Shown here piece after piece: positions 10,899 to 42,801 of a stretch of DNA of 64,000 nucleotides; positions within the stretch are counted from its first letter, which is position 1; the number at the start of each line of letters is the position of its first letter. The notes under the pieces were generated by a model. It did no database searches and was not told the origin of the DNA. It saw only the letters and a program-made list of their open reading frames with translations. The position numbers were made by a program, and so were the translations under genes. This DNA is from Acidobacteriota bacterium (GTDB lineage: Bacteria; Acidobacteriota; Thermoanaerobaculia; Multivoradales; JAGPDF01): positions 67,615 through 131,614 of the forward strand of contig BTUO01000007.1 of NCBI GenBank assembly GCA_045862895.1. Direction: 5' to 3'.

Positions 10899-10927
10899 CG
10901 CGATCGCCTCCCGAGAATCCTCCACTG

Positions 10928-19882: not shown

Positions 19883-20249
19883 TCGGTTCCCAGACCCCCT
19901 CGGCGGCCCGGCGCGGGCCGTCGTCGGTGGTCAGCCAGGCGTGGCCGTCGCCGGAGCCGGAGCTATCCGGGCGAAAGGCCAGCGCCAGCCGCGGCTCGAG
20001 ACCGCAGCGGGCGTGCAGGTCGAGCAGCACCAGCGAGCGCTTGAGGCAGGGGCCGCCGTCGACCGGCAGCAGCCGCGCGACGCGCGCGACGTAGCCGCTC
20101 CAGCGCCCGGGATCGCGCAGTGCGGCGCTGCGAAAGGCCGGCGCCTCGCGCAGGCGCGCCACCCGCTCGTCGATCGGCAGCGCCGAGGTCGAGCGCGCGC
20201 GGGCGACCGCGCGCAGCAGCGCGGGGAAGCCGACGAGCGCGAACAGCCA
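19869..20249 (-). CDS. transglutaminase-like superfamily small protein (lasso-peptide B2-like Cys protease fold)
   Basis: The minus-strand ATG at 20249 lies 5 nt after the kinase stop. The protein is MNRWLFALVGFPALLRAV...PCLKRSLVLLDLHARCGLEPRLALAFRPDSSGSGDGHAWLTTDDG. This matches the CLxRSL...HAW(V/L)...G signature of lasso B2 / PF13471 proteins, with Cys and His present. It is hidden in the track inside the Arg-rich ORF 19869..23981. Confidence 0.65.
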   Translation of the reverse strand, partial: WLFALVGFPALLRAVARARSTSALPIDERVARLREAPAFRSAALRDPGRWSGYVARVARLLPVDGGPCLKRSLVLLDLHARCGLEPRLALAFRPDSSGSGDGHAWLTTDDGPRRAAEGVWEPITIL

Positions 20250-20254
20250 TCGAT

Positions 20255-23548: not shown

Positions 23549-23683
23549 GGCGGGGGGAGGGGCGCCCAGGGTCCGGAAACAACGGTCGCGAGGCGAGACC
23601 CCGGTGGGCCCCCCTCGTCTCCCTCCGGACGCCTGCGGTGCAGCGCCCTTCTGCCCGTCCGGACTCCCGGAGATTCCCTTCCT

Positions 23684-23707
23684 GTGGGTCCCCTTTTGTG
23701 TGTCCCC
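23684..23707 (+). promoter_or_regulatory. upstream motif copy B (GTGGGTCCCCTTTTGTGTGTCCCC), 39 nt before the FAD oxidase ATG
   Basis: Read directly from the sequence. It forms an inverted pair with copy A across the divergent region. Confidence 0.45.
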
Positions 23708-23745
23708 GAGGGTTGGTAGCGTCCGCGGGCGGGTGGAGGGTGGCC

Positions 23746-25002
23746 ATGACGACGGGGACGGGCGCCGGCAGGGAGCGGGGACGGGGCGGGCTGAGCCGCC
23801 GCGAGCTGCTGGCGGCCGGCGTCGCGCTCGGCACGACCGTGGCGCCGCGCGCCGTGCGGGTGGCAGCGCCCCGGCGAAGCGCGCTCGTGGTCGGTGCCGG
23901 CGCCTTCGGGGGCTGGAGCGCCCTCCATCTGCTGCGCCGCGGCTTCGAGGTCACGCTGGTCGACGCCTGGGGGCCGGGCAACTCGCGCGCCTCCTCGGGC
24001 GGCGAGACCCGGGTGATCCGCGGCAGCTACGGCGCCCGCGGCGTCTACACGCGGCTGACCGCGCGCGCCTTCGAGCTCTGGAAGGAGCACGACGCGGCGC
24101 GCGGCTCGCGCCTCTTCCACCCCGTCGGCGTGCTCTGGATGCACGGCGCCGACGACTCCTTCCTGCGCGAGTCGATTCCGCACCTCGACGCCAGCGGCCT
24201 GCGTCACGAACGCCTCGACGCCCGCGCCGCCGCGGCGCGCTGGCCGCAGATCGACTGGCGCGGCCTCGCGGGCGCGCTCTGGGAGCCCGACTCCGGCTAC
24301 CTCGACGCACGCCGCGCCTGCGCCGACGTCGTCGCGGCGTTCACCGCGGCGGGCGGCCGCTTCGTCCTCGACGGCGCGCGGCCGGTCGTCGCCCGAGGCG
24401 AGGCCGCGGTCGAGCTCGACGGCGGCGGGCGCCTGGCGGCCGACCACATCGTCTTCGCCTGCGGCCCCTGGCTGTCCCGCCTCTTCCCCGACGTGATCGG
24501 CGTCCGCATCCGCCCGACCCGCCAGGAGGTCTTCTTCTTCGGGACACCGGCGGGCGAGCCGCGCTTCGCCCCGCCGCAGATGCCGGTCTGGGCCGACCCG
24601 AGCGGCGAGCGGATGTTCTACGGCATCCCGGGCAACGACGCGCGCGGCTTCAAGGTCGCCGACGACACGCGCGGTGAGCCGATCGACCCCACCACCCTCG
24701 AGCGAACGCCGTCGCCCGCGGCGCTCGAGCGGGCCCGCGCCTTCCTCGCCCGGCGCTTCCCCGCGCTCGCCGGCGCGCCGCTGGTCGAGGCGCGGGTCTG
24801 TCAGTACGAGAACTCGCCCGACGGCGACCTGATCTTCGACCGCCACCCCGAAGCCGCGAACCTCTGGCTGCTGGGCGGCGGCTCAGGGCACGGCTTCAAG
24901 CTCGGGCCGGCGCTGGGCGAGCACGTCGCCGGCGTCGTCGCCGGAGAGACCGCACCCGAACCGGCGTTCGGACTGGCCCGATTCGCGAAGCCCGAGTCCT
25001 GA
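23746..25002 (+). CDS. FAD-dependent oxidoreductase (DAO / glycine-sarcosine oxidase-like) with a Tat signal
   Basis: A GGAGGG lies 5 nt upstream of the ATG. MTTGTGAGRERGRGGLSRRELLAAGVALG contains the twin-arginine motif. ALVVGAGAFGGWSALHLLRRGFEVTLVD is a GxGxxG FAD fold. The C-terminal part reads LLGGGSGHGFKLGPALGE. Confidence 0.8.
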   Translation: MTTGTGAGRERGRGGLSRRELLAAGVALGTTVAPRAVRVAAPRRSALVVGAGAFGGWSALHLLRRGFEVTLVDAWGPGNSRASSGGETRVIRGSYGARGVYTRLTARAFELWKEHDAARGSRLFHPVGVLWMHGADDSFLRESIPHLDASGLRHERLDARAAAARWPQIDWRGLAGALWEPDSGYLDARRACADVVAAFTAAGGRFVLDGARPVVARGEAAVELDGGGRLAADHIVFACGPWLSRLFPDVIGVRIRPTRQEVFFFGTPAGEPRFAPPQMPVWADPSGERMFYGIPGNDARGFKVADDTRGEPIDPTTLERTPSPAALERARAFLARRFPALAGAPLVEARVCQYENSPDGDLIFDRHPEAANLWLLGGGSGHGFKLGPALGEHVAGVVAGETAPEPAFGLARFAKPES

Positions 25003-27609: not shown

Positions 27610-28647
27610 TCAGTGGAGCTTCGCGGCGAGACCTCGGACTCCCTCGACGGGCAGTCCTTCGAGCTCGGCGCGGACCGGCGCCAGGGCGTGGCGGTACCGG
27701 CCCAGCGTGGCGATCGCCCGTTCCACGAGGTCGGGTCGGTCCTCCATCAGCACCGAGAGGAGCAGCGCGGCCTGCTGCCGGTCCTTGCGGGCACGCAGGG
27801 TTTCCGAAGCCGGCCGACGCCGCGCGACCCAGAGCTTGTGCAGAGCGAATCGCCCGGGGTCGGGAACGGGTACCAGAATCGGCAGCGATCCGACCAGCAC
27901 TCCTTCGGTCGGATCCTCGATCAGATAGTCGAGCAGGCGCAGCGGCCAGGCCGCGAGCCCGAGCGCCGGCAGCTCGACCGGGCGCTCGCGATCGGGACCG
28001 TGCCGCGGCATCAGGAAATCGATCCGGTGCTCACGCCCGCGCAACTTGAACGAGGTCGACGCCCGCCGCGGATCGAGGCCGGGGATCGGCAGGAAGGGGG
28101 GCTCGGCTCCGGTCAGCCAGTCGGATACGGCGCCGCCCGGCTCGGCCCCAAACGCGATCGCGGTCTCGCGATCGCCGGCGACGTCGATGTCCTGGGTCCG
28201 TGCCAACGCGCTCGCGCGGATTCCGAGCGAATTGGCCAGCACGCCGAAGGCACGCGTCCCGACCAGCACGGCGCCCGCCCGGAACAAGCCCGCGGCCGCC
28301 AGCAGCTCGACGACCCGCGTGCCGACGGCCGAGTCCCGATAGGCGCCGGCCGCGACCAGCATGTCGTGGACTTCCTGCGCGCGGGCGCGGTCGGGTTCGA
28401 GCTCCGTGCGGCGTCGTTCGACCTCCTCCATCCTGGCAAGCAGCTCCGCGCTCTCCGCGCCGAGATAGCGCTGCGTCCGGACCCCCGCTCCGGTCATCTG
28501 GAGGTACCAGTAGCGCCGACCCTTGATCGACTTCGAAACGAAGGTCCCAGGGGGCAGGTCTCGCCCGGCGCGCGCGAGGGCGCGCAGCTGGTCGAGCAGC
28601 TCCGAGTAGAGCGCCAGGGCCGGATCCGGCAGCCGCTCCGGTGTCAT
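27610..28647 (-). CDS. nucleotidyltransferase-fold protein (AbiEii-like / GSU2403-like) with an N-terminal extension of about 100 aa
   Basis: The ATG is at 28647. LVGTRAFGVLANSLGIRASALARTQDIDVAG resembles the hGGTAL...RxSxDIDh motif of AbiEii-type NTases. The N-terminal part (about 110 aa, LALYSELLDQLRALARAGRD...) is of unknown function. Confidence 0.55.
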   Translation of the reverse strand: MTPERLPDPALALYSELLDQLRALARAGRDLPPGTFVSKSIKGRRYWYLQMTGAGVRTQRYLGAESAELLARMEEVERRRTELEPDRARAQEVHDMLVAAGAYRDSAVGTRVVELLAAAGLFRAGAVLVGTRAFGVLANSLGIRASALARTQDIDVAGDRETAIAFGAEPGGAVSDWLTGAEPPFLPIPGLDPRRASTSFKLRGREHRIDFLMPRHGPDRERPVELPALGLAAWPLRLLDYLIEDPTEGVLVGSLPILVPVPDPGRFALHKLWVARRRPASETLRARKDRQQAALLLSVLMEDRPDLVERAIATLGRYRHALAPVRAELEGLPVEGVRGLAAKLH

Positions 28648-30339: not shown

Positions 30340-30636
30340 CTACTCGAGGAAGCGCCGGATATCGAGCGCTCCATGGAAGACACCAAGGATGTCGACGTCG
30401 CCCGCGGGCTTGACGAGGTAGGCAATGCGGAAATGGCCGTAGAGAATGATGCGAACGTGTCGGTTCTTCGAGATTTCGTAGCGATACCCGCGTTCGGGGA
30501 ACACGGCGAGGGTCTGCGCGAGCTCGTAGATGGCGCGAGAGGTCCGCTGCGCGGCGCCGGGATTGTCAGCCGCGATGTACTCGTGGATCTCGGCGAGCCA
30601 GCGCGCGGCTTCCTCTGTCCACCTTACTTCTCCCAC
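30340..30636 (-). CDS. parE: ParE/RelE-family type II toxin
   Basis: A GTG start overlaps the antitoxin stop by 13 nt. The protein, MGEVRWTEEAARWLAEIHEYIAADNP ... RIILYGHFRIAYLVKPAGDVDILGVFHGALD, is typical of ParE-like toxins. Local GC is lower than the flanks. Confidence 0.8.
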   Translation of the reverse strand: MGEVRWTEEAARWLAEIHEYIAADNPGAAQRTSRAIYELAQTLAVFPERGYRYEISKNRHVRIILYGHFRIAYLVKPAGDVDILGVFHGALDIRRFLE

Positions 30637-30821
30637 GCGCTGATCCGTTGGCCCATCTCCTCGTGACTGATCGTGCGACCGGCGTCGGAATCAGCGAGGC
30701 CACGCTCGATCATCCGAGCGAACGCCAGCTCTCGAAGGAGTTCGTCGTATGAGCTGTCATCGGGCTGCTTCTCGAGAAGCCGGAGCATCTCCTCCTTGGC
30801 AGTGCGCTTGCTCTGTGTCAT
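30624..30821 (-). CDS. type II antitoxin (putative addiction-module component, TIGR02574-like)
   Basis: The ATG at 30821 has a GGAGG 7 nt upstream. MTQSKRTAKEEMLRLLEKQPDDSSYDELLRELAFARMIERGLADSDAGRTISHEEMGQRISAWEK is 65 aa. It sits upstream of and overlaps the ParE-like gene. Confidence 0.75.
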   Translation of the reverse strand: MTQSKRTAKEEMLRLLEKQPDDSSYDELLRELAFARMIERGLADSDAGRTISHEEMGQRISAWEK

Positions 30822-30920
30822 CTCCGGGCCTCCCACTCGAACCCAGACAATTGTAGCGGACTCGCTCGACCCCGCCCGGCATGCGCGCCGCGCGCCCGAA
30901 GACCTCTGGAACGGAAGGTT

Positions 30921-31560
30921 GATCCGGTTGCCGTTGCCGTCGTAGCAGGAGGCTTGCTCCTCACCGTCCGAGAAGATCCCCGGATCCATCAATCGCTTCT
31001 CGCGCAGCAGCCGGAGGCGCAGGTCGCAGCTCCACTCCATGACCCGACCCTCCGGCTCGGCGCAACGGATTCGGTCCCCGATGTCGTCGAGCACGAATCG
31101 GGTGATCGCCGCGAGCGGGCGGTTCTCCGACTTCAGGAGGTTGCGCTCGTCGTACTCGAAGCCGGTCGTATGACCGCGGGCGTCGGTCGTGAAGATCCGG
31201 TTGCTGTTGCCGTCGTACTGATTGGACTCGAGCTTGATCCCCGCCCGAGTGGTCGACAGCAGCCGATTCTCCCGGTCCCAAGCGAAGCGGGTCGGGATCT
31301 GCTTCCGGTCGGTCGCCGACAGGCGGTTGCCCACCGCGTCGTAGCTGAAGGTCTGGAACGTCCCCGCCGCCGCCGGATCGTCGACCCGGATCAGTCGGTC
31401 GAGATCGTCGTAGTGGTAGGTCGTGACGAAGTCGCGGCGGTTCTGCTCGGTCGTCTTGTTGCCCGCGAGATCCCACGTCAGGACCGTGTCGAAGACGAAC
31501 GGGAGTGGGTCGAGCGTGCGGGTCCGCTGAAAGCGCTTCTGCGGCCTCCCTGAAGGGACG
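30921..31560 (-). pseudogene. orphan RHS/YD-repeat internal fragment, a frameshifted duplicate of main RHS gene segment 34885..35490
   Basis: About 85-90% DNA identity by eye to 34885..35490. It encodes RLLSTTRAGIKLESNQYDGNSNRIFTTDARGHTTGFEYDERNLLKSENRPLAAITRFVLDDIGDRIR, against RLLSTTRSGITLESNQYDGNGNRIFTTDARGHTTGFEYDERNLLKSENRPLAAITRFALDDLGDRIR in the main gene. It is split over two reading frames (track ORFs 30624..31334 and 30961..31689). Confidence 0.7.
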
Positions 31561-31645
31561 GGTACCGGGGCCTACGGAACGCGAATAGCCGCGAGCAAGT
31601 CTCGCCGCAATTGCTGGTCGTCCTCCATCCGAAATGAATCCAGGC

Positions 31646-32056
31646 TCACTGGATCCCCACGGCACTGCCAGACTGACTTGCCGTCTCAATTGCGCCGGCG
31701 AGCACGTCTAGGAGATTCGCGCCGTCCGATGTTACAAAGTAGTCTGCCAAGCTTTGTATTTCGTCGCTGATCTCGCTTCCCCATGGCGGATGTGCCGTCA
31801 AGTCTTCGAAATCCCAAACAACTTGCGACGGAGGGATCGCCGCAAGCGACCTTCGTATTTGGGCGAGCTCCAGTAATGCCTCCTTGAGTAGGCCTGGCTC
31901 CAAGCGGCCTGAGTAGAGGCCATTCATGATTGCTGGATACAAGCTTCCCCAGTCCTCATGTTCAAGCAGAACGAAGATCGTGGAGAAGAAGGACTTGAGG
32001 AACGAAGCCGACCCAATCTCATACCGTTTGCGACCAACACAAAGGGCAACACTCAT
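31646..32056 (-). CDS. putative RHS immunity protein
   Basis: A 136-aa ORF immediately downstream of the RHS gene, overlapping it by 4 nt. GC is markedly lower (about 50%). Composition is normal (MSVALCVGRKRYEIGSASFLKSFFSTIFVLLEHEDWGSLYPAIMNGLYSG...). This is the canonical position for cognate immunity genes. Confidence 0.6.
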   Translation of the reverse strand: MSVALCVGRKRYEIGSASFLKSFFSTIFVLLEHEDWGSLYPAIMNGLYSGRLEPGLLKEALLELAQIRRSLAAIPPSQVVWDFEDLTAHPPWGSEISDEIQSLADYFVTSDGANLLDVLAGAIETASQSGSAVGIQ

Positions 32057-35000
32057 GGATCCGCCCGTTGCACTACGACATTATCTGCATGAATAAGACC
32101 ATCTGACTTCTGGACGATCCGATCTAGCATTCTCTGAAGTAGCACGTCGTTGACCTGTTGTCCCCTGATGTCGATGATCACGCCCTGCTGCATTCCTTCC
32201 GGCAGATTTCTGGCTCGAGATTCGCTTTGGCCCACTACGTCCCGCACCAGTCTCCAGCGGCCCTTAGCTGTCGTCAAGTCGTAATTCTTCACGTCAACCG
32301 AGAGCATCATCTGTTCGCTGGCGTAGTCAGGTCTAACACTTCCTCTAGTTCCATAGCTGACACGGCTTCCTCCGAAGAAGGAGGGCTCAGACTCGAATCC
32401 GAACTGGGCGAGATCGTCCGCGGGACCGGCCTGCGCCGCCTGCCAACTTGGACGAATCGGCGGCGTGGAGCGCTCAGCCGAACTCCCAAGAGCGGGAGCG
32501 CTTTGGGTCGTCGAGACCTCGGAAACTGCCGCGCCACCACTTGTTGAGCTCTCTCCAACGACCGCACTCTGAACACGAACTGGAACGGAAGTCGTCGTTG
32601 TTCCGAAGGGCACTCTCGGCGCTCCTCCGAGCGGCGCAACCGCCTCACTGAAGCCGGCCTCGATTCCGGCGAAGTCGACGGAGAGCGCTCGGGTGGTCAG
32701 GCGACCCGCACCGCGCGCGAGAGCGCCCGCCCCTTCGATGCCACCTGCGACGGCCAGCGCGTCGGCGGATCCGATCTCTCCACCGACCATCCCGGATTGG
32801 AAGTACTCGCCCTTTGCCTCGTGGGCTTCGATCTTCTGGATCGCCACCGCATGAGCGTCGACGATCGTGTCGACCGGATGGCTGATGAAGTCCGCCAGAG
32901 CTTCCGCACGCCCCGCGTTTCGCTCGAACGCCCCTGGTAGCGCCATGCCGGAGGCGTTGTCGGCCGCGAGCGACAACAGGCCTACGGCCGTGCCGCCCAA
33001 CATCTTGGCTGTACCGACAGCCCCCCCCACCCCTCGCTGAAGGTTCTTACCGGCGTTCCGTGGGTCGTACATCCCAACGAGGGTGCCCACGGCCACGTCC
33101 TGCACGAACTGCAGATCACGACCGAGCTCTTCCCAGCTGTAAAGGCCCAGAGGATCGGTGAATCGAACCGGACTCGCGTTGGCGTAGAGGAATCGATGCA
33201 AGCTTGGCGGCGTCTCCAGGACGCCGCCGAACGGATCCTCGTTCAGGAACCTCCCGAGCTCCGGGTCGTAGAACCGCGCTCCGAAGTAGTAGAGCCCGGT
33301 CTCCTCGTCCCGCTGGTGCCCGGTAAAGCCGAAAAGGTTGAAGCTGTCCCCGGCCTGGCTTCGTAGGTTCCCCCACGCATCCCACCGGAACCGCGCCTGG
33401 AGCGTTCCGTCCGGCTTCGACAGGCTCGCCACGCTCCCCAGCCCGTCGAACAAGTAGAACTGCCGCCCTTCGACCGCGTGGTCGAGGCTCAGGAGCCGAT
33501 CCGGCCCCCACTCGTACTTCGCGATCGTGATCCCGGCGAGGTCGGTCTGGAGCAACAGGCTCCGCTCGTCGTAGACGAACCGGAAGAGACCGCCCGGGCC
33601 CGACTTGCGCGTTCTCAGGCCGTCGTAGCTGTAGCCGTAGGTCTCGAGCAGGCCGGTTGAGGTCGAGACCTCGACCAGCTGGTCTCGGACGTCGTAGATG
33701 AAGCTGCTGATGACACCGCTCTGGACCGCGGTCTTCTCGATCTGGTTGCCGTTGACGTCGTAGGCGTAGTTCGTGTTGTTGGCCGGCTCGACGCTGTCCG
33801 TCACCGAGAGGAGGAAGTCCCGCTCGTTGTAGCCGTAGGTCTTGTTCGAGGTGATCGTGCCGGTACCGGTGTCGGTCGTGACCTCGGTCTGCCGATTGCC
33901 CACACCGTCGAGGGTGTAGACCACCGTCTCGTCCGGGTAGTGGACCTCGGTCAGCCGGTCGGCGTCGTCGTAGACGTAGGTGGTCGTCTCTGGGGCGCCG
34001 CCGTTGGTCTCTTCCTGGCTCGTCCGGTTGCCGTTCCGGTCGTAGGCGTAGACGTAGCTCGATACCAGGGCGGTGTGCTGGCGGTTCTCGATCGAGGTCA
34101 CCCGGTTCGCCCGGTCGTAGCCGTAGGCGGCCGTCGCACCGTTCGGGTAGGTGATCCGCTTCAGCAGCGAGTTGCCGAGGTACTCGTAGAGCGTCGCGCC
34201 CGTGCCCGGTGGCAGCACCGACTGCAGCCGGTTCAGAGCGTCGTGCTGGTAGAGGGTCGTGCGGCCGTCCGGGTCCGTGAGGCGATTGCGGTTGCCCGCG
34301 GCGTCGTAGCCGTAGGTGAGGAGCTCCCCTTCCGGGTCGGTCTTCGTCCGCAGCCGGTCGAAGGCGTCCCAGGTCTGGCTCGTCGTCCGCGTGCCCGACG
34401 GGCCCGAATAGGTCTCGGTCACCGTCTCGACGTTGCCGTTGCCGTCGTAGGCGGTCGCGATCGACTGGAGGTCGTCGCCCCGCGGCGGGGTCGGCGGCGG
34501 GTAGGTCGCCAGCGTCTCCCGGTCGAGCGCGTCGTACTGCCAGGAGAAGGCCTGGCCGAGCGGATCGGTCAGGCCGGTGCGGTTGCCGTTGGCGTCGTAG
34601 CCGTAGCTCTCCTCGGCCGCGACCCCGGCGACTTGCGGGTAGATCTTCCTGGTCAGCCGCTCGAGCGCGTCGTACTCGAAGCTCGTCGTGTGCGAGTTGT
34701 CGTCGGTCTGGGAGGTGCGGTTGCCCGACGGGTCGTAGCCGTAGCTCGTCAGGTGGCCGAGCGGGTCACGGACCGAGGTCAGGCGGTTGGCGGCGTCGAA
34801 GCCGTAGCGGAAGGCGCCGGGGAAGGGGGACTCACACGGCTCGGCACCGGCGAGCGCCGAGAACGCCTCCGGCTCGAAGCGGGCGATCCGGTTGCCGTTG
34901 CCGTCGTAGCAGGAGGCTTGCTCCTCGTCGTCCGAGGAGTTGCCCGGATCCATCAAGCGCTTCTCGCGCAGCTGACGGCGGCGCAGGTCGTAGCTCCACT

Positions 35001-38000
35001 CGGTGACCCGCCCCTCCGGGTCGATGCGGCGGATGCGGTCCCCGAGGTCGTCGAGCGCGAAGCGGGTGATCGCCGCCAGCGGGCGGTTCTCCGACTTCAG
35101 CAGGTTCCTCTCGTCGTACTCGAAACCGGTCGTGTGGCCCCGGGCGTCGGTCGTGAAGATCCGGTTGCCGTTGCCGTCGTACTGGTTCGACTCGAGCGTG
35201 ATGCCCGACCGCGTCGTCGAAAGGAGGCGGTTCTCCCGGTCCCACGCGAACGAGGTCCGAATCCCCCGCCGGTCCGTCGCCGACAGGCGGTTGCCGATCG
35301 CGTCGTAGGTGAAGCTCTGGAACGTCCCCACCGCCGCCGGATCGTCGATCCGGACCAAGCGGTCGAGCTCGTCGTAGTCGTAGCTCGTGACGAAGTCGCG
35401 CCGGTTCTGCTCGGTCTTCTTGTTGCCCGCCAGGTCCCAGGACAGGATCGTGTCGTAGCCGAACGGCGCCGGGTCGATCGTCCGCGTCAGGCGATTGAGA
35501 GCGTCGTACTCGTACTCGGTCGTGAAGCCCCGCGCGTTCTCGTGGGTCAAACGGTTGCCGGCGACGTCGTAGGTGAAGGCGAAGTCGCGGTCCTCCGGCA
35601 GGTGCTCGGCGACCAGTCGGTCGAGCGCGTCGTACTCGCGGGTCAGCTCGTTGCCGCTGGCGTCGGTTTCCCCGATGACGTTGCCCCGGGCGTCGTAGTC
35701 GGCGGTCGACAGCGCGCCCAGCTCGTCGGAGCTCTCCGTGCGGCGATTCAGGCCGTCGTAGACATGGGTGACGACGTTGCCGTTCGGGAGCCGCTCCTCG
35801 ACCACGTTGCCGTTGCCGTCGTGGGACCACTCGGTGACCACGTCGCGCGCCGGGACCGTGAACTTGTTGAGCACCTCGGTGCGCCGGATCCGGCGGTTGC
35901 GCTCGTCGTAGTCGGAGGTGACCAGCACGCCGCGGCGATCGACCTCGCGCACGAGATTGCCCACGGCATCGTACTCGTAGGTCCAGGCCTTCCCCTCGGC
36001 ATCCTCGCGCCGCCGCACCAGGCCGCGCTCGTCGTAGAGGACCTTGCGGACCTGGTCGTTCGACTCGAAGGTGCCGTTCGGCAGCTCGCGCTGGTTGTAG
36101 CGCCGCTCCTCTTCGCGGCGGTCCGGGTCGACGAACAGCCACTCCGTGACCGCTGCCTGGCCGGCCCGCCACTCCGGCCGCGTTTCCCGGATCCTGCGGT
36201 CGAGCTCGTCGTAGTCGACGAGCGTTTCCCGGTCGAGCGGGTCGCGCAAGGCGACGACGTTGCCGTTGCCGTCGAGCAGCTTCTCGATCCGCTGCGCCAG
36301 ACCGCTCGGATCGCGAATCACCGCGATCTCCCGGTTCAGCGCGTCGTAGACCTTCTCGGTCAGGCGCGGCTCGAAGGCCGGGTCGGTCGTGTCCGAAACC
36401 GTCTCGAACCGCAGGTTGCCGACAGCGTCGTACTGGTAGACGGTCCGGCGACCGTGAGGCTCGTCACGACGTTCGAGCCGGCCGGCGTCGTCGTAGTCGA
36501 AGATCGTGTCGTGCCGCGGCGTCTGCTGGTCGAACCAGGTCGACTCCAGCGTCTTGTTGCCGGCAAGGTCGTAGTCGAGGATCTTCGTCCCCTGCTCGGC
36601 GTTCACGATCGACGCGACGTTGCCTTCGAGGTCCAACGTCGTCACGGTCGAGCGGTTGCGGGCGTCGACGTCCGTGCGCGTTCGCGACGCGTCGTCGTAG
36701 ACCACCCGCTCCTCGGCGGGCGTCGCCTCGCCCTCGACGAGCGGGTGAACCGTCCGCACCCTCCGGTCGAGGACGTCGTACTCGAAGGTCGTCGCGTGGA
36801 ACCGTGCGTCGGTCCGCGAGACCATCCGTCCGCGTGCGTCGAAGGCGCTGACCGTCTTGTGGTTCAGCGGGTCGTGGACCTCGGTGAGATTGCCGGTGGC
36901 GTCGTATCGGAATCGCGTGGTCGAGCCGCGGTGATCCGTGGTCGACGCCCGATCGCCGTTCGGGAAGTAGTCGTGCCCGATCGTCAGGGTCCTGGCGCCG
37001 GCGTCGACGTCGGTGACGACGACCGACTCCGCGAGCAGATTGCCGCGCGCGTCGTACTCGAAGGTGGTAGTGGCGCCGTTGCGGTCGGTCCGGGTCGCTA
37101 GCCGGTCCTTGATCGGCAGCTCGAACTCCGAAGGCGGCACGTACGTGCGGCTCTCGACGTAGGTGTGCGCGCCGTTGTCGACGTCGATCACCTCCACCGA
37201 CTCGGAGAGCAGGTTGCCATGCTCGTCGTAGTCGTATTCCGTCCGGACGCCGTTCGCATCCGTCCGGGCGGTGACCAGGACGTCGTCGGGTGTCCACTCG
37301 GTGACGGTGAGCTGGTCGAGGGGATCGATCTGCCGGATCGTCGCACCGTAGCGGTTCTGGACGTAGCGCCACTCCTTGCCCCGCTCGTCGGTGACGACCG
37401 TCTCGGTCTCTTCGGCCCGCGCCTCGAGCCCGGCCAGGTCGAAGGCGAACTGCTTCACTCCCCCCCGCGGCTTGGTGATCGACTCGATCGAGATCCGCTG
37501 GACGAGCACCCCCGCCGCTCCGACGGTGACCGGCAGGTACTCGAAGAGCGTCTCCGCCGCCGAGATCTCGTCTCGCGCCTCCACCAGGACCTTGCGGTCG
37601 TCCCAGAACGGATTCCGCAGCTCCCAGCGATAGCTCTCGACCCGACTCGGACTGCCGTCCGAGTGGGTCTCGCGCTCCGCACGAATCAGGGTTCCCCACA
37701 CGGGATCGTAGGTGAACGTCACCCGGAGGCCGTCGGGACCCGACACCGAGACGAGAACCTCGCCGACCCACTGCGCGAAGCTCCGGCGTTGGTAGGCGAA
37801 CGTCAGCTGGCGGCCGGCGTCGTCGACGACGGCCGCCAGGCGGAACGGACTCTCGCCTCCGCTCGACGGCTCGTAGACCAGCGTCACGCGATTGCCGTTG
37901 GGGTCTTCGACGAAGGCGAGGCGCCAGCGGGTGTCGTAGTCGTAGACGTAGTGGTAGCGCCGGCCGCCCTTGGCGAAGAAGTCGAAGGTCAGGGTGCTCC

Positions 38001-41000
38001 AATTCGCGCGGAGCGTGCCGTGGTAGCCGCGCAACGGCCGCAAACCGCCCTCGCCGTCGTCGGCGAAGCGCATTCCGGAGCCCTCGCCGCCCACCACCAT
38101 GATGTCGCCGCAAGGGAGCACCGTGACGAACGACTGCCAGTTGTGCGACCAGCCCGGTCCCAGCGAACCCGGGTCGTACACGTCGCTCGAGGAGAACGTG
38201 CGTGAGAACTCGAGATCGATGCCGCGGGCCGGGATCGAGACGTCCTGTCGCGACAACACGAGGTGGCCGTCGAAGGCGTCGACGCCGCCGACGAGCGCGT
38301 GCCCGACCGCCAGGGAATCTCGCGTCACGAGCTCGAAGCGCGCGAAACCCCGTTCGATCTCGACGTGTCCGTCAGCGGTAGAAACGCCCCGCAGCTCCCA
38401 CTCGTACTCGCCCGGCAGCAGGTCGGAGGTCAGGATGTCCAGGTCATGGGATCCGGCTGGCTCCACGCCTCCGGCAAGCAGCGTGATCTCACTGCCGTCG
38501 TACTGCGGCGCTCCTCCGAGCTCGCGATAGATACCGCGAAAAACGAGCGAGACGTTCGCCTCGTAGCCCGTACGGTAGTGGAACTTCGCGGGTTGCTCGC
38601 AGACCCGTTCGTTGACCAGGTCGATGTCCTGACCGAGGAAGAGCTGGCGATCGAGCTCCGAGAAGAGCCGCTGCGAGAATGGCAGCAGTAGCTCGGAGGA
38701 TCGCATCTCGGCCTCGGTTCCCCGGTTGAGGACGAGCTGTGCCGAGTAGGTGCGCGCCTGATCGAACTCGTAGCCGCGCTGCACCGTCGCCTGGCCTGCC
38801 CCGGACCGGGGGCTCGCGGCGGCGACGCCGATCTCGTCGCCGTCCTCGAGCAGGACGATCTCGGCCGTTCTGGCCCGGTAGTCCTCGGGCAGGATTCGAT
38901 ACGAGAGAACCAACTCCTCCGCGAGTCGGCCGTCGTCGGTCAGAACGATCGGGAGATCGGCAATTGGATCGAGCGCCGCGTCGAGCGCCCAGACGCCGTT
39001 CACGAGGTAAGGACCAAAGGTCTCGGGCCCACTCGGCATGCCGAAGAAGTCCGTGGTGACCTCAACCTCCAGCGAGTGGAATCCAACGGCGGGACCCGTC
39101 GCGAGCTGCGTCTCGTAGGACGGGCCCTCGACGAGGATCGGTGGTGTCGCCGAGCCTCCATTCGAGACCTCGAGCTCCAGAGCGGCCTCGATCACGGCCC
39201 ACTGCCCGTCTCCCGACTGGCCTGGATAGGTTTCTCCTCCACCGCCCGGCATCGGGAAGTTGCCGTCGGCCTGGACGAACGCCGCGACGGTCATCGGAAT
39301 CGCCCGACCAAAGGTCGATCCCGGCGACGTCGCCTGGATGTTCTCTCCGAGCTCGTTGATCAGCCACCACGACGCGACGTCGACGCGGCGCCACGGGCTA
39401 CATTCTCCTGTCGTACTGCTCTGCGTGTAGAGGACGCCGTACTCGAATACCTGCGGATCGAACCCCCCTGCCCATGTCGAATAGGTGTAGCTGGCGGCGA
39501 AGGCGCTACCCGTCACCACTCCGATGGGGATGCCGTACGAGGAGGTCGCTCCCGTGTACTCTGCAACCTCGCAGCCCAGCGGATCGCCCGGGAACCAGCT
39601 GCATTCGCGTGAATCGAACACCGCGCCCGGCTGAGGGCTGGATGGAGCGTTGGTGCAGGACTCGTCCTCGAACATGTCGCTGAAGGACGCGCTGACGTCG
39701 ATGTTCGAGATCGGGTTGCCGTGGGAGTCCTCGACGACGAAAACCATCGTGTCGACCCAGGAGGCGGCCCGGTCCACGACGAAGTAAGTCTCGTCACTGT
39801 CCGTGCGCCGCAGTGTCGCCGGTGGTCCGGGGAAACCGAAGGCCTCGATCGGCGCGTCGACCGGAATAGCTCCGGAGGAGCTCGCCACGACCGCGTCGAT
39901 GACGTGCGCCAGCGCGCGGGTGGAATAGGCGTCTCCGTCGTCGCGCAGCAGGTAGACCGGTTCGAGCGAGGTGTCAGTGCCGAGTCGGAAGGGAACCGCC
40001 GCGACGCCGGTCCGGTCGGTGAGCACCGTCACTTCGTCGCCCGGCTCCCCCTCGAGCGGCTCGAAGCGGCCGTCGTCGCGCCCGGTCGTGAAGGTGACCG
40101 CGGCACCCCGAACCGGCCGTCCCGCGGCGTCGCGGACTTCGACCGCGAGCTCGACCGGGAGCAGCGTACCGACCGTCCCGTACTGGCCGTCCGTCGCCGT
40201 GATCTTGACGATCGTCGCCGCCGACATCGGGTCGGGATTGGGCTCGCCGTCGTAGGGCGCGGCGAGCGCCTCGGCGAGGAACTGCAGAACCCAGTCTTCC
40301 GGTGCCGCCGTAGTCGCGCCGCCCGCGAGGCCGCCCGAAAGGTAGTAGCCGGCCGCGCCGGTCGCGGGGTCGTCGACGCGGAAGACCGAGCCGCTCCAGG
40401 CGTCGCGCGCGACTGCGGTGCGCGGCACCTCGATCGTGGCGCCGGCGAGCGCCCAGCGCTCGATCTCGGCCTCGACCGCGGGCGGATGGTCGAGCAGCGC
40501 GAGCATCGCGGCGACGTTGCCGGCGTCGATCGTCTCGACCGGGATGCCGGCGGCGCGCGCGAGCCCGAGGCCGTGGTCGGCCGAGATTGCCCCGACCAGG
40601 AACTCGTCCTCGAACACGAAGCGCTCGAGCGCCGAGCCCTGGAGCGCCGCGAAGCGCTGGTAGTCGATCGCCTCCTCGGCGTCGCCGCCGCGCGCGACCG
40701 GATCGGTCGCACGCAGGGCGGCGTCGAGGGTCACCCCCTGCCACTCGAGCCCTTCCGGGATGCCGGCGAGGTGGGTGACCTCGACCGCGTTGGCGACCAA
40801 CGCGACCGAGGGCAGCGGCGTCGCCAGGGCGACGTCGAGCAGGCCCGCGAGCTCGCGCTCCGCGACGTCCCAGCGTTCGGCGAAGCGGTAGGCGAGCGAG
40901 GAGAGCAGGCGCGCGGCGAGCTGCTCGGCGTCGGAGGGGTCGCCGCCGTCGTCGGCGCGACCGTCGGCGCGCGGCCCGCCGACCGCGAGCGCCTGGTAGG

Positions 41001-42801
41001 AACCCGAGACGAAGGTCTGCTCGATCCGCTCGCTCCCCCACGGGCCGGCGATCGTCGTCTCGAAGTCGTGGGGCACCGCGAGCGGCATCGCCTGGCCGAC
41101 CGCGACCTCGCGCCCTTCGATCCGAAGCACGGGCCGCACGTCGACGAGGTAGGCCGGCACCCGCCCGAGCCCGCCGAACAGCATCACGGTCCGGTGATCG
41201 TCGACGCTGGCCGGAATGTAGGAGATCGTCGTCCGCCGCCCGAGCAGGCGGGCGACCGGCAGCTCGTGATCGAGCACGACCGGCTCGCCCGGAGCCGTCC
41301 CCGCGAAGGCGCGGAAGCGGATCGTCTGGCGGTCGGCCGGAGCGAGCGCGCTCGACTCCGCGGTCACCGCCACGGTGCGCACCGGCAGCGAGCTCGGCAG
41401 GTGGCTCAGCCGCTCCGGGACGACGGAACGCGCTCCCAGCTGATCCACGTAGCTCTCGTCCGGCCGGTTCTCGACGAGCCAGGCCTCGACCTGGCGCCGC
41501 ACCCGCGAGAGCGGTTCCTCGTCCTGGGGCGCGGCGAGGTACGCCGCGAGCTCGTCGTCCACCGCGAGGCCCATCGACTCGAGCACCCGCGTCGACGGGG
41601 TCGTGACGTGCCCTTCGAGCGCCGGAGCCAGCGGGATCCAGGTCCGGCCCGAGAAGTCGACCACCGAGCCACGGTAGTTCGAGTACGGGGCCCAGGCCGA
41701 GATCCAGGTGTGCTCGAGCTCGAACGCCGCGACGGCGCCGCCGCGGACGATCGGCCGAGCCGCCACACCCGAGCGGGCGAGCAGCGCGGCGATGGCCGTC
41801 GGAGACTCCGTGCCGAACTCGGCGGCGAGGTCGGCGATCGGCTGCTCGATCGCCCCCCGGACGTAGCGGCACGCCATGCCGCTCGCGCGCAGGAGCGCCA
41901 CCAGCAGGCTCGCCTGGTCGACGTCGTTGCCCCGCCGCTGGCGCAGCGTCTCCTCGGCGCCCTTGAGCGAACCGGCGTAGCGCTCGGTGTCAATCTCGTT
42001 GCGCACGAACTCGAAGAGGCGGACGTAGTCGTAGCCGAGCGCCGCGGCCTGCGCGACGATCTCGGCGGTGAGCGGAGCCTCCGGGGTCGACGCCAGGTCG
42101 GCCGCCGTCGGCAGGGGTGGGACCAGCAACCGGTACGACGGCTCGATGGCCGGCGCCACGACCGGTGTGCGCGCCGCGAGCTCCTGAGGGCGGTAGGGCA
42201 GCGCGAGAGCGCGCAGCAGGGGCTCGGAATCCGCCTCCCCCCCTTCACCGAGCGTGGCGAGGCCGCGAAAGACGGCGCCGGGGACGGCAACGGCGGCGCG
42301 GGCGCGCCCTGCCGGCGGTTCGGCGAGGTCGCCGAGCCAGCGCTCGAGCCCGGCGCGCAAGGGGGCGAAGCGCTCCTCGTAGCGGCGCTCCGCGGCGTCG
42401 AGACGCGCGACGACTGTGCCGCCGATGCCGGCTTCGGCCAGACGCCGCCGGTTGTCCGCGAAACGCTCCCGCGCGAGCAGGTCGAAGGCGAGCACTTCGG
42501 TCGCGACGGCCGCGGCGTCGCCGGCGTCGAGCGACGATCGGCTCGACAGACGCTCCAGCGAGATCACCGCCCGCTCGAGCCCCGCGGCCGTCTCGCTGCG
42601 ATCGCGGGCGGCCGCGCGCACCGGCCGGGGACGAGCGGCGAGCTCCCGGGCGAGGGCGCGAACCTCCTCCCCGCGCGCGAAGCCGGCGAGGAACCGCTCC
42701 TCGCGCGGGTCGTGGCCCTGCGCCGCGGCGGCGCTCGCGAGCGCCGTCGATCCCGCGATCGACAGCAGCGCCCACGCCAACCCCCTCCCCGTCACTCGCA
42801 C
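32053..42801 (-). CDS. RHS/YD-repeat polymorphic toxin (3582 aa) with N-terminal signal peptide, transglutaminase-like and Ig-like regions, YD repeats, RHS core ending DPLGLY, and a variable C-terminal toxin domain of about 430 aa
   Basis: A GTG start at 42801 has a GAGGAGGGAG just upstream. MRVTGRGLAWALLSIAGSTALASAAAAQG is a signal peptide. Many YD repeats are present (YDxxGNL, YDALNR, YDANGNR). The core reads FGFTGHQRDEETGLYYFGARFYDPELGRFLNEDPFGG ... DPLGLY. The C-terminal domain has unknown function and is encoded in a lower-GC segment. Confidence 0.9.
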   Translation of the reverse strand: MRVTGRGLAWALLSIAGSTALASAAAAQGHDPREERFLAGFARGEEVRALARELAARPRPVRAAARDRSETAAGLERAVISLERLSSRSSLDAGDAAAVATEVLAFDLLARERFADNRRRLAEAGIGGTVVARLDAAERRYEERFAPLRAGLERWLGDLAEPPAGRARAAVAVPGAVFRGLATLGEGGEADSEPLLRALALPYRPQELAARTPVVAPAIEPSYRLLVPPLPTAADLASTPEAPLTAEIVAQAAALGYDYVRLFEFVRNEIDTERYAGSLKGAEETLRQRRGNDVDQASLLVALLRASGMACRYVRGAIEQPIADLAAEFGTESPTAIAALLARSGVAARPIVRGGAVAAFELEHTWISAWAPYSNYRGSVVDFSGRTWIPLAPALEGHVTTPSTRVLESMGLAVDDELAAYLAAPQDEEPLSRVRRQVEAWLVENRPDESYVDQLGARSVVPERLSHLPSSLPVRTVAVTAESSALAPADRQTIRFRAFAGTAPGEPVVLDHELPVARLLGRRTTISYIPASVDDHRTVMLFGGLGRVPAYLVDVRPVLRIEGREVAVGQAMPLAVPHDFETTIAGPWGSERIEQTFVSGSYQALAVGGPRADGRADDGGDPSDAEQLAARLLSSLAYRFAERWDVAERELAGLLDVALATPLPSVALVANAVEVTHLAGIPEGLEWQGVTLDAALRATDPVARGGDAEEAIDYQRFAALQGSALERFVFEDEFLVGAISADHGLGLARAAGIPVETIDAGNVAAMLALLDHPPAVEAEIERWALAGATIEVPRTAVARDAWSGSVFRVDDPATGAAGYYLSGGLAGGATTAAPEDWVLQFLAEALAAPYDGEPNPDPMSAATIVKITATDGQYGTVGTLLPVELAVEVRDAAGRPVRGAAVTFTTGRDDGRFEPLEGEPGDEVTVLTDRTGVAAVPFRLGTDTSLEPVYLLRDDGDAYSTRALAHVIDAVVASSSGAIPVDAPIEAFGFPGPPATLRRTDSDETYFVVDRAASWVDTMVFVVEDSHGNPISNIDVSASFSDMFEDESCTNAPSSPQPGAVFDSRECSWFPGDPLGCEVAEYTGATSSYGIPIGVVTGSAFAASYTYSTWAGGFDPQVFEYGVLYTQSSTTGECSPWRRVDVASWWLINELGENIQATSPGSTFGRAIPMTVAAFVQADGNFPMPGGGGETYPGQSGDGQWAVIEAALELEVSNGGSATPPILVEGPSYETQLATGPAVGFHSLEVEVTTDFFGMPSGPETFGPYLVNGVWALDAALDPIADLPIVLTDDGRLAEELVLSYRILPEDYRARTAEIVLLEDGDEIGVAAASPRSGAGQATVQRGYEFDQARTYSAQLVLNRGTEAEMRSSELLLPFSQRLFSELDRQLFLGQDIDLVNERVCEQPAKFHYRTGYEANVSLVFRGIYRELGGAPQYDGSEITLLAGGVEPAGSHDLDILTSDLLPGEYEWELRGVSTADGHVEIERGFARFELVTRDSLAVGHALVGGVDAFDGHLVLSRQDVSIPARGIDLEFSRTFSSSDVYDPGSLGPGWSHNWQSFVTVLPCGDIMVVGGEGSGMRFADDGEGGLRPLRGYHGTLRANWSTLTFDFFAKGGRRYHYVYDYDTRWRLAFVEDPNGNRVTLVYEPSSGGESPFRLAAVVDDAGRQLTFAYQRRSFAQWVGEVLVSVSGPDGLRVTFTYDPVWGTLIRAERETHSDGSPSRVESYRWELRNPFWDDRKVLVEARDEISAAETLFEYLPVTVGAAGVLVQRISIESITKPRGGVKQFAFDLAGLEARAEETETVVTDERGKEWRYVQNRYGATIRQIDPLDQLTVTEWTPDDVLVTARTDANGVRTEYDYDEHGNLLSESVEVIDVDNGAHTYVESRTYVPPSEFELPIKDRLATRTDRNGATTTFEYDARGNLLAESVVVTDVDAGARTLTIGHDYFPNGDRASTTDHRGSTTRFRYDATGNLTEVHDPLNHKTVSAFDARGRMVSRTDARFHATTFEYDVLDRRVRTVHPLVEGEATPAEERVVYDDASRTRTDVDARNRSTVTTLDLEGNVASIVNAEQGTKILDYDLAGNKTLESTWFDQQTPRHDTIFDYDDAGRLERRDEPHGRRTVYQYDAVGNLRFETVSDTTDPAFEPRLTEKVYDALNREIAVIRDPSGLAQRIEKLLDGNGNVVALRDPLDRETLVDYDELDRRIRETRPEWRAGQAAVTEWLFVDPDRREEERRYNQRELPNGTFESNDQVRKVLYDERGLVRRREDAEGKAWTYEYDAVGNLVREVDRRGVLVTSDYDERNRRIRRTEVLNKFTVPARDVVTEWSHDGNGNVVEERLPNGNVVTHVYDGLNRRTESSDELGALSTADYDARGNVIGETDASGNELTREYDALDRLVAEHLPEDRDFAFTYDVAGNRLTHENARGFTTEYEYDALNRLTRTIDPAPFGYDTILSWDLAGNKKTEQNRRDFVTSYDYDELDRLVRIDDPAAVGTFQSFTYDAIGNRLSATDRRGIRTSFAWDRENRLLSTTRSGITLESNQYDGNGNRIFTTDARGHTTGFEYDERNLLKSENRPLAAITRFALDDLGDRIRRIDPEGRVTEWSYDLRRRQLREKRLMDPGNSSDDEEQASCYDGNGNRIARFEPEAFSALAGAEPCESPFPGAFRYGFDAANRLTSVRDPLGHLTSYGYDPSGNRTSQTDDNSHTTSFEYDALERLTRKIYPQVAGVAAEESYGYDANGNRTGLTDPLGQAFSWQYDALDRETLATYPPPTPPRGDDLQSIATAYDGNGNVETVTETYSGPSGTRTTSQTWDAFDRLRTKTDPEGELLTYGYDAAGNRNRLTDPDGRTTLYQHDALNRLQSVLPPGTGATLYEYLGNSLLKRITYPNGATAAYGYDRANRVTSIENRQHTALVSSYVYAYDRNGNRTSQEETNGGAPETTTYVYDDADRLTEVHYPDETVVYTLDGVGNRQTEVTTDTGTGTITSNKTYGYNERDFLLSVTDSVEPANNTNYAYDVNGNQIEKTAVQSGVISSFIYDVRDQLVEVSTSTGLLETYGYSYDGLRTRKSGPGGLFRFVYDERSLLLQTDLAGITIAKYEWGPDRLLSLDHAVEGRQFYLFDGLGSVASLSKPDGTLQARFRWDAWGNLRSQAGDSFNLFGFTGHQRDEETGLYYFGARFYDPELGRFLNEDPFGGVLETPPSLHRFLYANASPVRFTDPLGLYSWEELGRDLQFVQDVAVGTLVGMYDPRNAGKNLQRGVGGAVGTAKMLGGTAVGLLSLAADNASGMALPGAFERNAGRAEALADFISHPVDTIVDAHAVAIQKIEAHEAKGEYFQSGMVGGEIGSADALAVAGGIEGAGALARGAGRLTTRALSVDFAGIEAGFSEAVAPLGGAPRVPFGTTTTSVPVRVQSAVVGESSTSGGAAVSEVSTTQSAPALGSSAERSTPPIRPSWQAAQAGPADDLAQFGFESEPSFFGGSRVSYGTRGSVRPDYASEQMMLSVDVKNYDLTTAKGRWRLVRDVVGQSESRARNLPEGMQQGVIIDIRGQQVNDVLLQRMLDRIVQKSDGLIHADNVVVQRADP

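Follow-up and report, generated by a model that had tools for sequence, protein, structure and literature searches.

The 3' end of a giant rhs gene in the window (the whole 64-kb stretch of DNA that was analysed) differs sharply in base composition from the rest of the gene, and a small ORF follows it directly. This raised the question of whether a toxin-immunity cassette had been grafted onto an existing RHS gene and, if so, what kind of toxin it encodes. We concluded, with a probability of roughly 0.85, that the locus encodes a polymorphic RHS toxin carrying a Tox-REase-10-family nuclease at its C-terminus, together with the cognate Imm70 immunity gene.

The rhs gene (32053..42801, minus strand) encodes a protein of 3582 aa. 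Its N-terminus resembles a signal peptide, and about 1500 aa lie N-terminal to the RHS shell, including a Transglut_core domain (aa 245-384) and a Big_1-like segment that precede DUF6531 (aa 1507-1579). RHS repeats were matched in 21 stretches by PF05593 (E 1.3e-129) and by TIGR01643 (E 5.5e-85). The RHS repeat-associated core domain (TIGR03696, 33142..33381, minus strand; aa 3141-3220) scored 76.5 bits (cutoff 32.5), and ended in PVRFTDPLGL followed by Y; this is the PxxxxDPxGL motif that canonically separates the conserved core from the variable C-terminal region (CT). As judged from these sequence features, the locus is an RHS/YD-repeat polymorphic toxin, with YD repeats, a core ending in PxxxxDPxGL, and an immunity gene downstream. 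The region after DPLGLY measured 361 aa, not the approximately 430 aa given by a previous sequence-only reading of this DNA. Among the subset of window ORFs that was scanned, no PAAR, VgrG, or other type VI secretion system (T6SS) or secretion-system gene was found.

The CT consists of a linker and a toxin domain. The linker (32461..33138, minus strand; aa 3222-3447, 226 aa) is rich in alanine (17%) and glycine (15%), which together make up 32% of its residues, and has a Ser/Thr-rich spacer at its end. It had been described as a Gly/Ala-rich hydrophobic segment; the composition was confirmed, but the hydrophobicity was mild only. Transmembrane helices were considered and ruled out, since the maximum Kyte-Doolittle score of any 19-mer was 1.32, which indicates that the linker holds no classical transmembrane helix. 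The linker had no Pfam match, and composition-corrected BLAST detected no homology to it among 152 members of the toxin family. Uncorrected BLAST carried alignments on across the Ala/Gly-rich linker, and we regarded these alignments as compositional. The segment may serve as a spacer or in translocation.

Sliding-window GC and codon usage were computed across the locus. The GC content of the window was 0.712, with a standard deviation of 0.040 among 300-nt windows over the 64 kb. GC fell below 0.60 in 13 of 1275 such windows, all of which started within 31551-32151 and together covered 31551-32450, the sole stretch in the 64-kb window with GC below 60%. The minimum, 0.51, was located at 31851-32200, about 5 standard deviations under the window mean. 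A uniform GC profile, which would have spoken against a graft, was thus not seen. The cassette had been put at about 50% GC; its low GC is real, but the values ranged from 0.51 to 0.58 rather than lying flat at 50%, with 0.558 for the toxin domain and 0.545 for the 136-aa immunity gene. At third codon positions (GC3), the RHS protein up to aa 3221 had a value of 0.91 (40-codon windows, standard deviation 0.06, minimum 0.70), compared with 0.72 for the linker, 0.59 for the toxin domain (aa 3448-3582), and 0.61 for the 136-aa ORF. As GC3 itself fell from 0.91 to 0.59-0.61, the dip reflects a change in codon usage and not an effect of amino acids. The GC3 profile descended in two steps. The first was at the end of the core, DPLGLY (aa 3216-3221, window 33139-33156), where GC3 dropped from 0.91 to about 0.75, and the second was near aa 3385 (window position ~32640). 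The second step agreed with the earlier observation that GC drops sharply from about 32650 through the 3' end of rhs and the 136-aa ORF. A single graft at DPLGLY does not account for this two-step profile. A scan for promoters and terminators around the cassette gave nothing beyond background.

Downstream of the cassette we found an orphan RHS core fragment (30919..31525, minus strand) of about 605 nt, in frame and with both ends missing. Its identity to a segment of the main rhs gene (34883..35490, minus strand) is about 88%, and the two copies form a direct repeat with a spacing of 3964 nt. The fragment corresponds to an internal piece of the core, matching approximately aa 2438-2640 of the main protein, is accompanied by no CT or immunity gene of its own, and ends beside a ParE toxin-antitoxin pair. 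It is likely what remains of an earlier 3' end that was displaced. The toxin-immunity module (~31600-32640) and, less markedly, the whole CT from DPLGLY onward were most likely acquired by recombination from a source of lower GC. The incoming module would have replaced the earlier 3' end, of which the 605-nt core fragment would survive downstream. The proposal of a grafted RHS toxin and immunity cassette was therefore supported by a GC3 of 0.59-0.61 against 0.91 and by the displaced core fragment downstream.

The 136-aa ORF (31646..32056, minus strand) begins with an ATG that overlaps the TGA of rhs by 4 nt (ATGA). It matched Imm70 (PF15601) with an E-value of 1.9e-42 and 144.5 bits (cutoff 26.7), over model positions 5-130 of 131. 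In 80 genomes that were compared, 74 of the 76 ORFs directly downstream of the toxin were homologous to the immunity protein of the window, and Pfam Imm70 was detected at E<=1e-3 in 43 of 75 downstream ORFs (the window excluded). The closest metagenomic relatives likewise encode a 136-aa Imm70. GTDB representatives did not include the source genome, the best identity there being 46%, whereas Logan DRR491769 contained an identical contig of 3982 nt. The strong Imm70 match, the ATGA overlap, and the conserved neighbourhood bore out the suggestion that this ORF is the cognate immunity gene of the toxin.

The toxin domain (32056..32460, minus strand; aa 3448-3582, 135 aa) is of the Tox-REase-10 type with a predicted PD-(D/E)xK fold. 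A Pfam scan of the domain returned only a chance sub-threshold match to HtaA, and an NCBIfam scan returned none. When 20 members of the family were scanned against Pfam at permissive settings, chance matches alone appeared, and the toxin domains of long canonical members also lacked a Pfam or NCBIfam match. Sequence searches of PDB chains by phmmer and hmmsearch, with the single domain, the family profile, or the firmicute member P0170 as query, retrieved no toxin at E<=10, and the matches obtained with the toxin domain were chance matches to ribosomal proteins L6/L9 and similar. A word-indexed homology search with the single toxin-domain sequence found 4 relatives. The impression of a rare domain left by that search was overturned by an exhaustive profile search, which placed the domain in 940 representative proteins at E<=1e-3 (clusters at 50% identity), and in 407 proteins at E<=1e-10. 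The domain was C-terminal in all 150 of the 150 best matches listed of the 940.

An alignment of 147 members gave the ordered consensus RPxW-xSE, QxSF, GSxRP[DE], S[VI][ED]VKNY, GR, Q, R, LPxG, Q, and IDxRGQ. Conservation was complete at RP[DE] (147 of 147), complete or nearly so at DxRGQ (146-147), and high at the first glutamate (137) and the glutamine of QxSF (138), with the R present in 105. In [ED]VKNY, the K and Y were found in all 147 members and the N in 144, and D took the first position in 57. The toxin domain of the window has RPD, DVKNY, GR, and DIRGQ. Its putative active site comprises D3492 of RPD, D3503 and K3505 of the DVK in SVDVKNY, Q3525, R3529, Q3539, and D3544 and R3546 of DIRGQ. 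Tox-REase-10 was published with the signature 'E, Q, [DE], ExKNY, R, DxRG' and with Imm54 and Imm70 as partners (Zhang, de Souza, Anantharaman, Iyer & Aravind 2012, Biol Direct 7:18, PMC3482391), and it is the only toxin given for Imm70 in that work (PMC3482391). The toxin is an additional member of this family, whose definition in 2012 was computational. Neither Pfam nor NCBIfam has a model for it, so that membership was assigned from the conserved motifs, the partnership with Imm70, and the delivery contexts instead of a curated model; for the same reason the sequence-only reading had left the domain unassigned. The C-terminal toxin thus does match a published family, although one that is experimentally uncharacterised. 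The carriers recognised among 54 toxin ORFs were PT-VENN (12), DUF637 (6), LXG (2), PT-TG (2), WXG100 (1), DUF4280 (1), and RHS (1), and long metagenomic family members also bear RHS and eCIS_core. Among 5426 complete E. coli genomes, 51 also carry the family in orphan cdiA-CT arrays.

Structure prediction, which had been suggested for the C-terminus, was performed on the toxin domain. The AlphaFold2 model had a pLDDT of 95.1 and a pTM of 0.88, with the element order alpha (9-21), beta, beta, beta (49-51, right after RPD), beta (56-61, SVDVK), alpha (68-88), beta (94-100), alpha, and beta. The top Foldseek matches in the PDB were Can2 and the CdiA-CT TA271 (4g6u_A), with a probability of 0.98-0.99, and PspGI, Bax1, MUS81, and BglII were also matched. 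The model thus yielded the common PD-(D/E)xK core, although the fold matches themselves were weak (E >= 6e-3, TM 0.43-0.50). By this model, the toxin domain is predicted to have a PD-(D/E)xK nuclease fold.

Two alternative readings concern the origin and the identity of the cassette. The low GC might be native to the C-terminus, shaped locally by amino-acid composition, translational coupling, mRNA structure, or the like, rather than a result of horizontal acquisition. Polymorphic-toxin tips are often AT-richer than their hosts, and the drop in GC3 over the linker was merely modest. However, the drop from 0.91 to 0.59-0.61 at third positions runs through two different genes until the immunity ORF ends, no second region of this kind occurs in the 64 kb, and the displaced core fragment lies directly downstream. 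The closest relatives of the cassette reside in contigs with a GC of 0.61-0.65, and the same toxin-immunity pair rides on CdiA, LXG, and other carriers elsewhere. We consider a native origin very improbable. Even less credence is due to the reading in which the last 150 aa represent an undescribed toxin fold or family and the immunity protein, too, is new. The lack of Pfam, NCBIfam, and PDB sequence matches and the mere 4 relatives in the word-indexed search appeared to favour it, but the domain occurs in 940 clusters and in hundreds of proteins at the stricter threshold, its signature and Imm70 partner fit the family published in 2012, the immunity protein is Imm70, and the predicted fold is a common one. 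The proposed novel effector domain was hence not borne out.

The remaining alternatives accept the family and concern the activity of the toxin. A Tox-REase-10 toxin could be an RNase rather than a DNase, for instance a tRNase like the CdiA-CTs of Burkholderia pseudomallei 1026b and E479. The member P0170 (Clostridium porci) is named 'tRNA nuclease CdiA C-terminal domain-containing protein' in UniRef, and of the three PD-(D/E)xK CdiA-CT types that have been characterised structurally, two are tRNases that depend on Mg (PMC9086364). The P0170 name was assigned automatically, however, and the toxin domain has no sequence similarity to characterised CdiA-CT toxins. Its best toxin match by fold was the Zn-dependent DNase CdiA-CT TA271 (4g6u_A), 4G6V and 5J4A were absent among the 50 matches listed in each of two Foldseek searches, and most characterised REase-fold enzymes cut DNA according to Zhang et al. 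An RNase is thus a possible but the less probable outcome. The other alternative arises from the sequence of the clade itself. In seven sequences, those of the window protein and its six closest relatives, two near-invariant positions of the family are changed, with Q (Q3460 in the window protein) in place of the helix-1 glutamate (position 13; conserved in 93% of the family) and ExSF (E3475) in place of QxSF (position 28). The loss of the glutamate could mean that catalysis has degenerated in the toxin domain of this clade, and the cassette a relic or a protein with a non-nucleolytic role. Against this, the swap was reciprocal in all seven sequences, and the combination E/E never occurred; the D of RPD, the D and K of DVK, the Q, the R, and DxRGQ are intact; and the ORF is intact with a tightly coupled Imm70 gene, which is kept in the window, in the relatives L082 and L085, and probably in L084, whose downstream ORF ends at the end of its contig. 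Degeneracy is therefore improbable. On sequence, the exchange looks like a relocated carboxylate and not a loss, and the two exchanged residues probably act together in the active site.

Taking the locus as a Tox-REase-10 toxin with its Imm70 partner, we propose how the system may work. The 3582-aa RHS protein would be exported by means of its signal-peptide-like N-terminus, and the YD-repeat shell would enclose the C-terminal region. By analogy with RHS/Tc-type proteins, the RHS-associated core would cleave after DPLGL and free the 361-aa CT, of which the last 135 aa would enter a competitor cell. There the domain may act as a metal-dependent PD-(D/E)xK endonuclease through D3492, D3503, and K3505, with the Q/E pair, the R, and DIRGQ as candidate helper residues. 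Its substrate is more likely DNA, though it could be tRNA. The producer would be protected by the translationally coupled Imm70 protein, which would bind and neutralise the toxin. A literature search for nuclease, toxicity, or immunity assays of any Tox-REase-10 member or of Imm70 returned mentions only.

As a discovery the locus matters little, being a further case of the well-known swapping of toxin-immunity cassettes on RHS proteins. Its value lies in the family. Since neither Pfam nor NCBIfam models Tox-REase-10, and we found no solved structure or experimental characterisation of it, genome annotation labels its members 'hypothetical' or 'adhesin'; a curated model and a single biochemical study would clarify many of these labels. 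The residue pair singled out by the reciprocal E/Q exchange is simple to probe by mutagenesis. More speculatively, the window protein and its six relatives might form an RHS-borne subclade in which the exchanged E/Q rewires metal binding or substrate choice, carried in a diderm by a Sec-exported 3582-aa RHS protein that is co-transcribed with a 5924-aa adhesin. We consider this unlikely; if true, the subclade would represent an RHS delivery route independent of the T6SS.

Compared with Tox-REase-10 as published, the window toxin shares the ordered motif signature, the predicted restriction-endonuclease fold, and Imm70 directly downstream. The family to which it belongs likewise occupies the C-terminus of CdiA/FHA-type and LXG/WXG-type toxins of beta- and gamma-proteobacteria, firmicutes, and spirochaetes. 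The window toxin differs in its carrier, a giant RHS protein; the 2012 table gives FilH repeats only as carriers and not RHS (PMC3482391), so that RHS is an added carrier for the family. The clade of the window also differs in having DVKNY instead of EVKNY and in exchanging E and Q between the first two positions of the signature. Among CdiA-CT toxins of known structure, those of E. coli TA271 and Y. pseudotuberculosis YPIII are Zn-dependent DNases (4G6U/4ZQU), those of B. pseudomallei 1026b and E479 are tRNases (4G6V/5J4A), and the three solved PD-(D/E)xK types have immunity proteins that are mutually unrelated (PMC9086364). The window toxin shares with these toxins the predicted fold class and probably the role of a nuclease at the C-terminus of a contact-dependent polymorphic toxin, held in check by the product of a small immunity gene downstream. 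The structure 4g6u_A ranked first or second among PDB fold matches, with a TM of just 0.43-0.45, and in the absence of sequence homology to TA271/YPIII, Bp1026b, or E479 the resemblance is at the level of fold only. Classical Rhs loci with orphan rhs-CT/rhsI modules in Enterobacteriaceae and Dickeya (Poole et al. 2011, PMC3150448) differ from the window, in which the protein is 3582 aa long with about 1500 aa before the shell, no T6SS gene was found in the ORFs tested, and the remnant is an internal core piece beside a ParE pair and has no CT or immunity gene. Both kinds of locus share the core ending in PxxxxDPxGL, a compositionally deviant CT and immunity gene, and core remnants downstream that fit recombinational replacement (PMC3150448).

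The giant minus-strand rhs gene (32053-42801, 3582 aa) is followed directly by a 136-aa ORF (31646-32056, minus strand) whose ATG overlaps the rhs TGA (ATGA), and both genes are as an earlier sequence-only reading had described them. According to NCBIfam, the RHS repeat-associated core domain spans aa 3141-3220, and its last residues are exactly ...TDPLGL, which is the canonical border between the conserved Rhs core and the variable toxin. The region after DPLGLY measured 361 aa (aa 3222-3582) instead of the estimated 430 or so, and comprised a linker of 226 aa (aa 3222-3447) and a toxin domain formed by the last 135 aa. The linker is Gly/Ala-rich as had been proposed (A 17%, G 15%), but its supposed hydrophobic character did not extend to any segment fit for a classical membrane helix. 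The 136-aa protein matched Pfam Imm70 (PF15601) over the full model length (E 1.9e-42, 144.5 bits versus a cutoff of 26.7).

The last 135 aa had no match in Pfam, NCBIfam or among PDB sequences, and a word-indexed search with the single toxin-domain sequence recovered only 4 relatives, which explains why the domain could not be placed from sequence inspection. In an exhaustive HMMER search with a profile built from the window domain and these relatives (5 sequences), thresholds of E<=1e-3, 1e-10 and 1e-30 gave 940, 629 and 75 representative proteins with the domain, respectively. It formed the extreme C-terminus in each of the 150 best matches that were listed, in proteins of about 90 to 2541 aa; some members were named 'filamentous hemagglutinin' or 'adhesin' in the source databases. 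Alignment of 147 members revealed the conserved motifs RPxW-x-SE, QxSF, GxEVPYGTxGSxRP[D/E], S[VI][E/D]VKNY, GR, Q, R, LPxG, Q, and I-D-x-R-G-Q. In their polymorphic-toxin survey, Zhang et al. (2012) defined Tox-REase-10 as 'restriction endonuclease fold; E, Q, [DE], ExKNY, R, DxRG', with Imm54 and Imm70 as partners, FilH repeats, and delivery by T2SS, T5SS, and T7SS; Tox-REase-10 is the sole toxin listed for Imm70 (PMC3482391). The family motifs matched this signature one for one in order and nature, and Imm70 adjoins the toxin. The suggestion of a novel effector domain was therefore rejected. Tox-REase-10 has no Pfam or NCBIfam model, and we found no experimental work on it in the literature that could be searched.

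The distribution of the pair was determined by scanning one genome per species. The domain was encoded at 80 loci, with 35-46% identity to the window toxin, in hosts including Pseudomonas, Photorhabdus, Yersinia, Pantoea, Xanthomonas, Streptococcus, Listeria, Bacillus, Lachnospiraceae, Treponema, Leptospiraceae, Acidobacteriota, and others. At 76 of them an ORF start lay a few bases at most from the toxin stop, and iterative HMM search showed 74 of these 76 ORFs to be homologous to the window immunity protein; 43 of the 75 non-window downstream ORFs passed Pfam Imm70 at E<=1e-3, the remainder being more divergent. Domains upstream in the toxin ORFs were PT-VENN (12), DUF637 (6), LXG (2), PT-TG (2), DUF4280, WXG100, and RHS, and long metagenomic members carried RHS repeats or an eCIS core. 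The toxins of the closest metagenomic relatives were 59-70% identical to that of the window; a complete 136-aa Imm70 (51-58% identical) follows the toxin in two of them, and in the third the downstream ORF is interrupted by the contig end. In E. coli, 51 of 5426 complete genomes, O157:H7 strains among them, have toxin and downstream ORF in orphan cdiA-CT arrays (for example GCA_054803105.1, extracted stretch 2424-3296), with both genes annotated 'hypothetical protein'.

The window toxin departs from its family at two residues (rhs aa 3460 and 3475; window 32380-32424, minus strand), each conserved in 93-94% of members. E in helix 1 and Q in QxSF were present in 135 of 147 members. In the window protein and the six sequences closest to it (7/147) the arrangement was reversed, with Q in helix 1 and E in ExSF, which was seen nowhere else; Q/Q occurred in 2/147 and E/E in 0/147. 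The seven swapped sequences lie in one clade, indicating a single event, and every other signature residue is intact there. The reciprocal nature of the exchange suggests that the carboxylate was relocated, not lost.

Structure prediction of the toxin domain, proposed by the sequence-only reading, was carried out with AlphaFold2 from a 70-sequence alignment (mean pLDDT 95.1, pTM 0.88). The model consists of a helix (9-21), two short strands, a strand (49-51) right after RPD, a strand (56-61) with SVDVK, a long helix (68-88) with the conserved Q and R, and a strand (94-100) leading into DIRGQ, followed by a helix and a strand. Foldseek against the PDB returned nothing below E 1e-3; the best matches were PD-(D/E)xK nucleases, namely Can2 at a probability of 0.99 and 4g6u_A, the CdiA-CT DNase of E. 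coli TA271, at 0.98, and lower matches (PspGI, Bax1, MUS81, BglII) were interspersed with unrelated Rossmann-like proteins. From knowledge of Rhs/Tc and PD-(D/E)xK toxins, the rhs protein would be exported from the producer with its C-terminal region enclosed within the YD shell and autoproteolysed after DPLGL. The toxin would then enter a competitor cell, where its domain would perform metal-dependent nucleic-acid cleavage, and in the producer it would be neutralised by Imm70. DNA is favoured as the substrate (probability about 0.55-0.6), because most REase-fold enzymes cut DNA, as argued by Zhang et al. (PMC3482391), and the toxin most similar in fold is a DNase. The toxin may instead be a tRNase like Bp1026b or E479; one family member was automatically named 'tRNA nuclease CdiA C-terminal'.

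The cassette is carried by a bona fide RHS protein, in which Pfam detected RHS repeats in 21 stretches together with DUF6531, a transglutaminase-like core at aa 245-384 and, weakly, Big_1. About 1500 aa precede DUF6531 (38300-42801, minus strand), including the transglutaminase-like core and an N-terminus resembling a signal peptide. Among the subset of window ORFs scanned, neither PAAR nor VgrG turned up, and no component of a T6SS, T5SS or T7SS was found. An overlap of 10 nt links the rhs GTG start with the stop of a 5924-aa adhesin-like ORF (42792-60566, minus strand), suggesting that giant adhesin and RHS toxin are co-transcribed. This ORF contains five CARDB domains, FlgD_ig, Big_13, Calx-beta, fn3, F5/8 type C, an adhesive C-terminal pAdhesive_15, and a prenyltransferase/SQHop-cyclase-like toroid near its N-terminus. 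A nearby TonB-dependent receptor gene shows that the organism is diderm. A halogenase-like flavoprotein and a TonB-dependent receptor flank a gene (27610-28647, minus strand) whose 345-aa product matches the NTP_transf_8 nucleotidyltransferase domain over its full length (PF12281, E 5e-49). Four very long ORFs of 981-1917 aa (301-4710, plus strand; 5169-8114, 8118-13871, and 19869-23981, minus strand) had no Pfam match at E<=1e-4; they may encode genuine unknown proteins, or may be artefacts on the opposite strand of DNA with 71% GC.

The sharp drop in GC noted earlier was borne out by sliding-window and whole-window calculation. Overall GC was 71.2% over 64 kb (S.D. 0.040 among 1275 windows of 300 nt), and only 13 of the 1275 fell below 60%, all within 31551-32450 (minimum 0.51), a trough unique in the 64 kb. 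GC3 was 0.91 in the RHS core (aa 1-3221; 40-codon windows, S.D. 0.06, lowest still at least 0.70), 0.72 in the linker, 0.59 in the toxin domain, and 0.61 in the 136-aa ORF. Since the shift lies at third codon positions, the change is one of codon usage, not amino-acid content. The first fall in GC3, to about 0.75, coincides with DPLGLY (aa 3216-3221), where the core ends; the second, to about 0.5-0.65, comes near aa 3385 (about 32640), the position of the drop reported before. These two steps, across linker (32461-33138) and toxin domain (32056-32460), may stem from one recombination event whose amelioration was uneven, or from two grafts in succession.

The interpretation as a grafted cassette was right. 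About 120 nt past the immunity stop lies a 605-nt orphan RHS core piece (about 30919-31525, minus strand), about 88% identical to an internal rhs segment (34883-35490, minus strand) with sharp homology edges on both sides, forming a direct repeat with a spacing of 3964 nt. It is probably what is left of an earlier 3' end that was displaced. Its truncated end abuts a ParE-family toxin gene (PF05016, E 8e-15; 30340-30636, minus strand), which is overlapped and preceded by a 65-aa ORF (30624-30821, minus strand) without a Pfam match, presumably the antitoxin. Contigs with the closest cassette relatives had 0.61-0.65 GC, and the linker had no homologue among family members after composition correction. 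The assembly of the cassette region itself is supported by an independent Logan assembly (DRR491769), in which a 3982-nt contig was 100% identical to 30933-34914; both its ends lie inside the two core repeat copies, an assembly break at the repeat.

Displaced remnants have been seen in Rhs loci whose main gene took up an incoming core-CT-immunity segment by recombination (PMC3150448); the orphan piece is similar, but consists of internal core and has no CT of its own. At the sequence level the toxin falls outside the structurally solved CdiA-CT PD-(D/E)xK families. By every testable criterion the cassette belongs to the Tox-REase-10/Imm70 pair and would work like it, and the toxin-Imm70 distribution is that of a classical polymorphic-toxin cassette, fitting the published description. 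The earlier structural observation was correct. The missing curated family model gives the finding some annotation value but little surprise.
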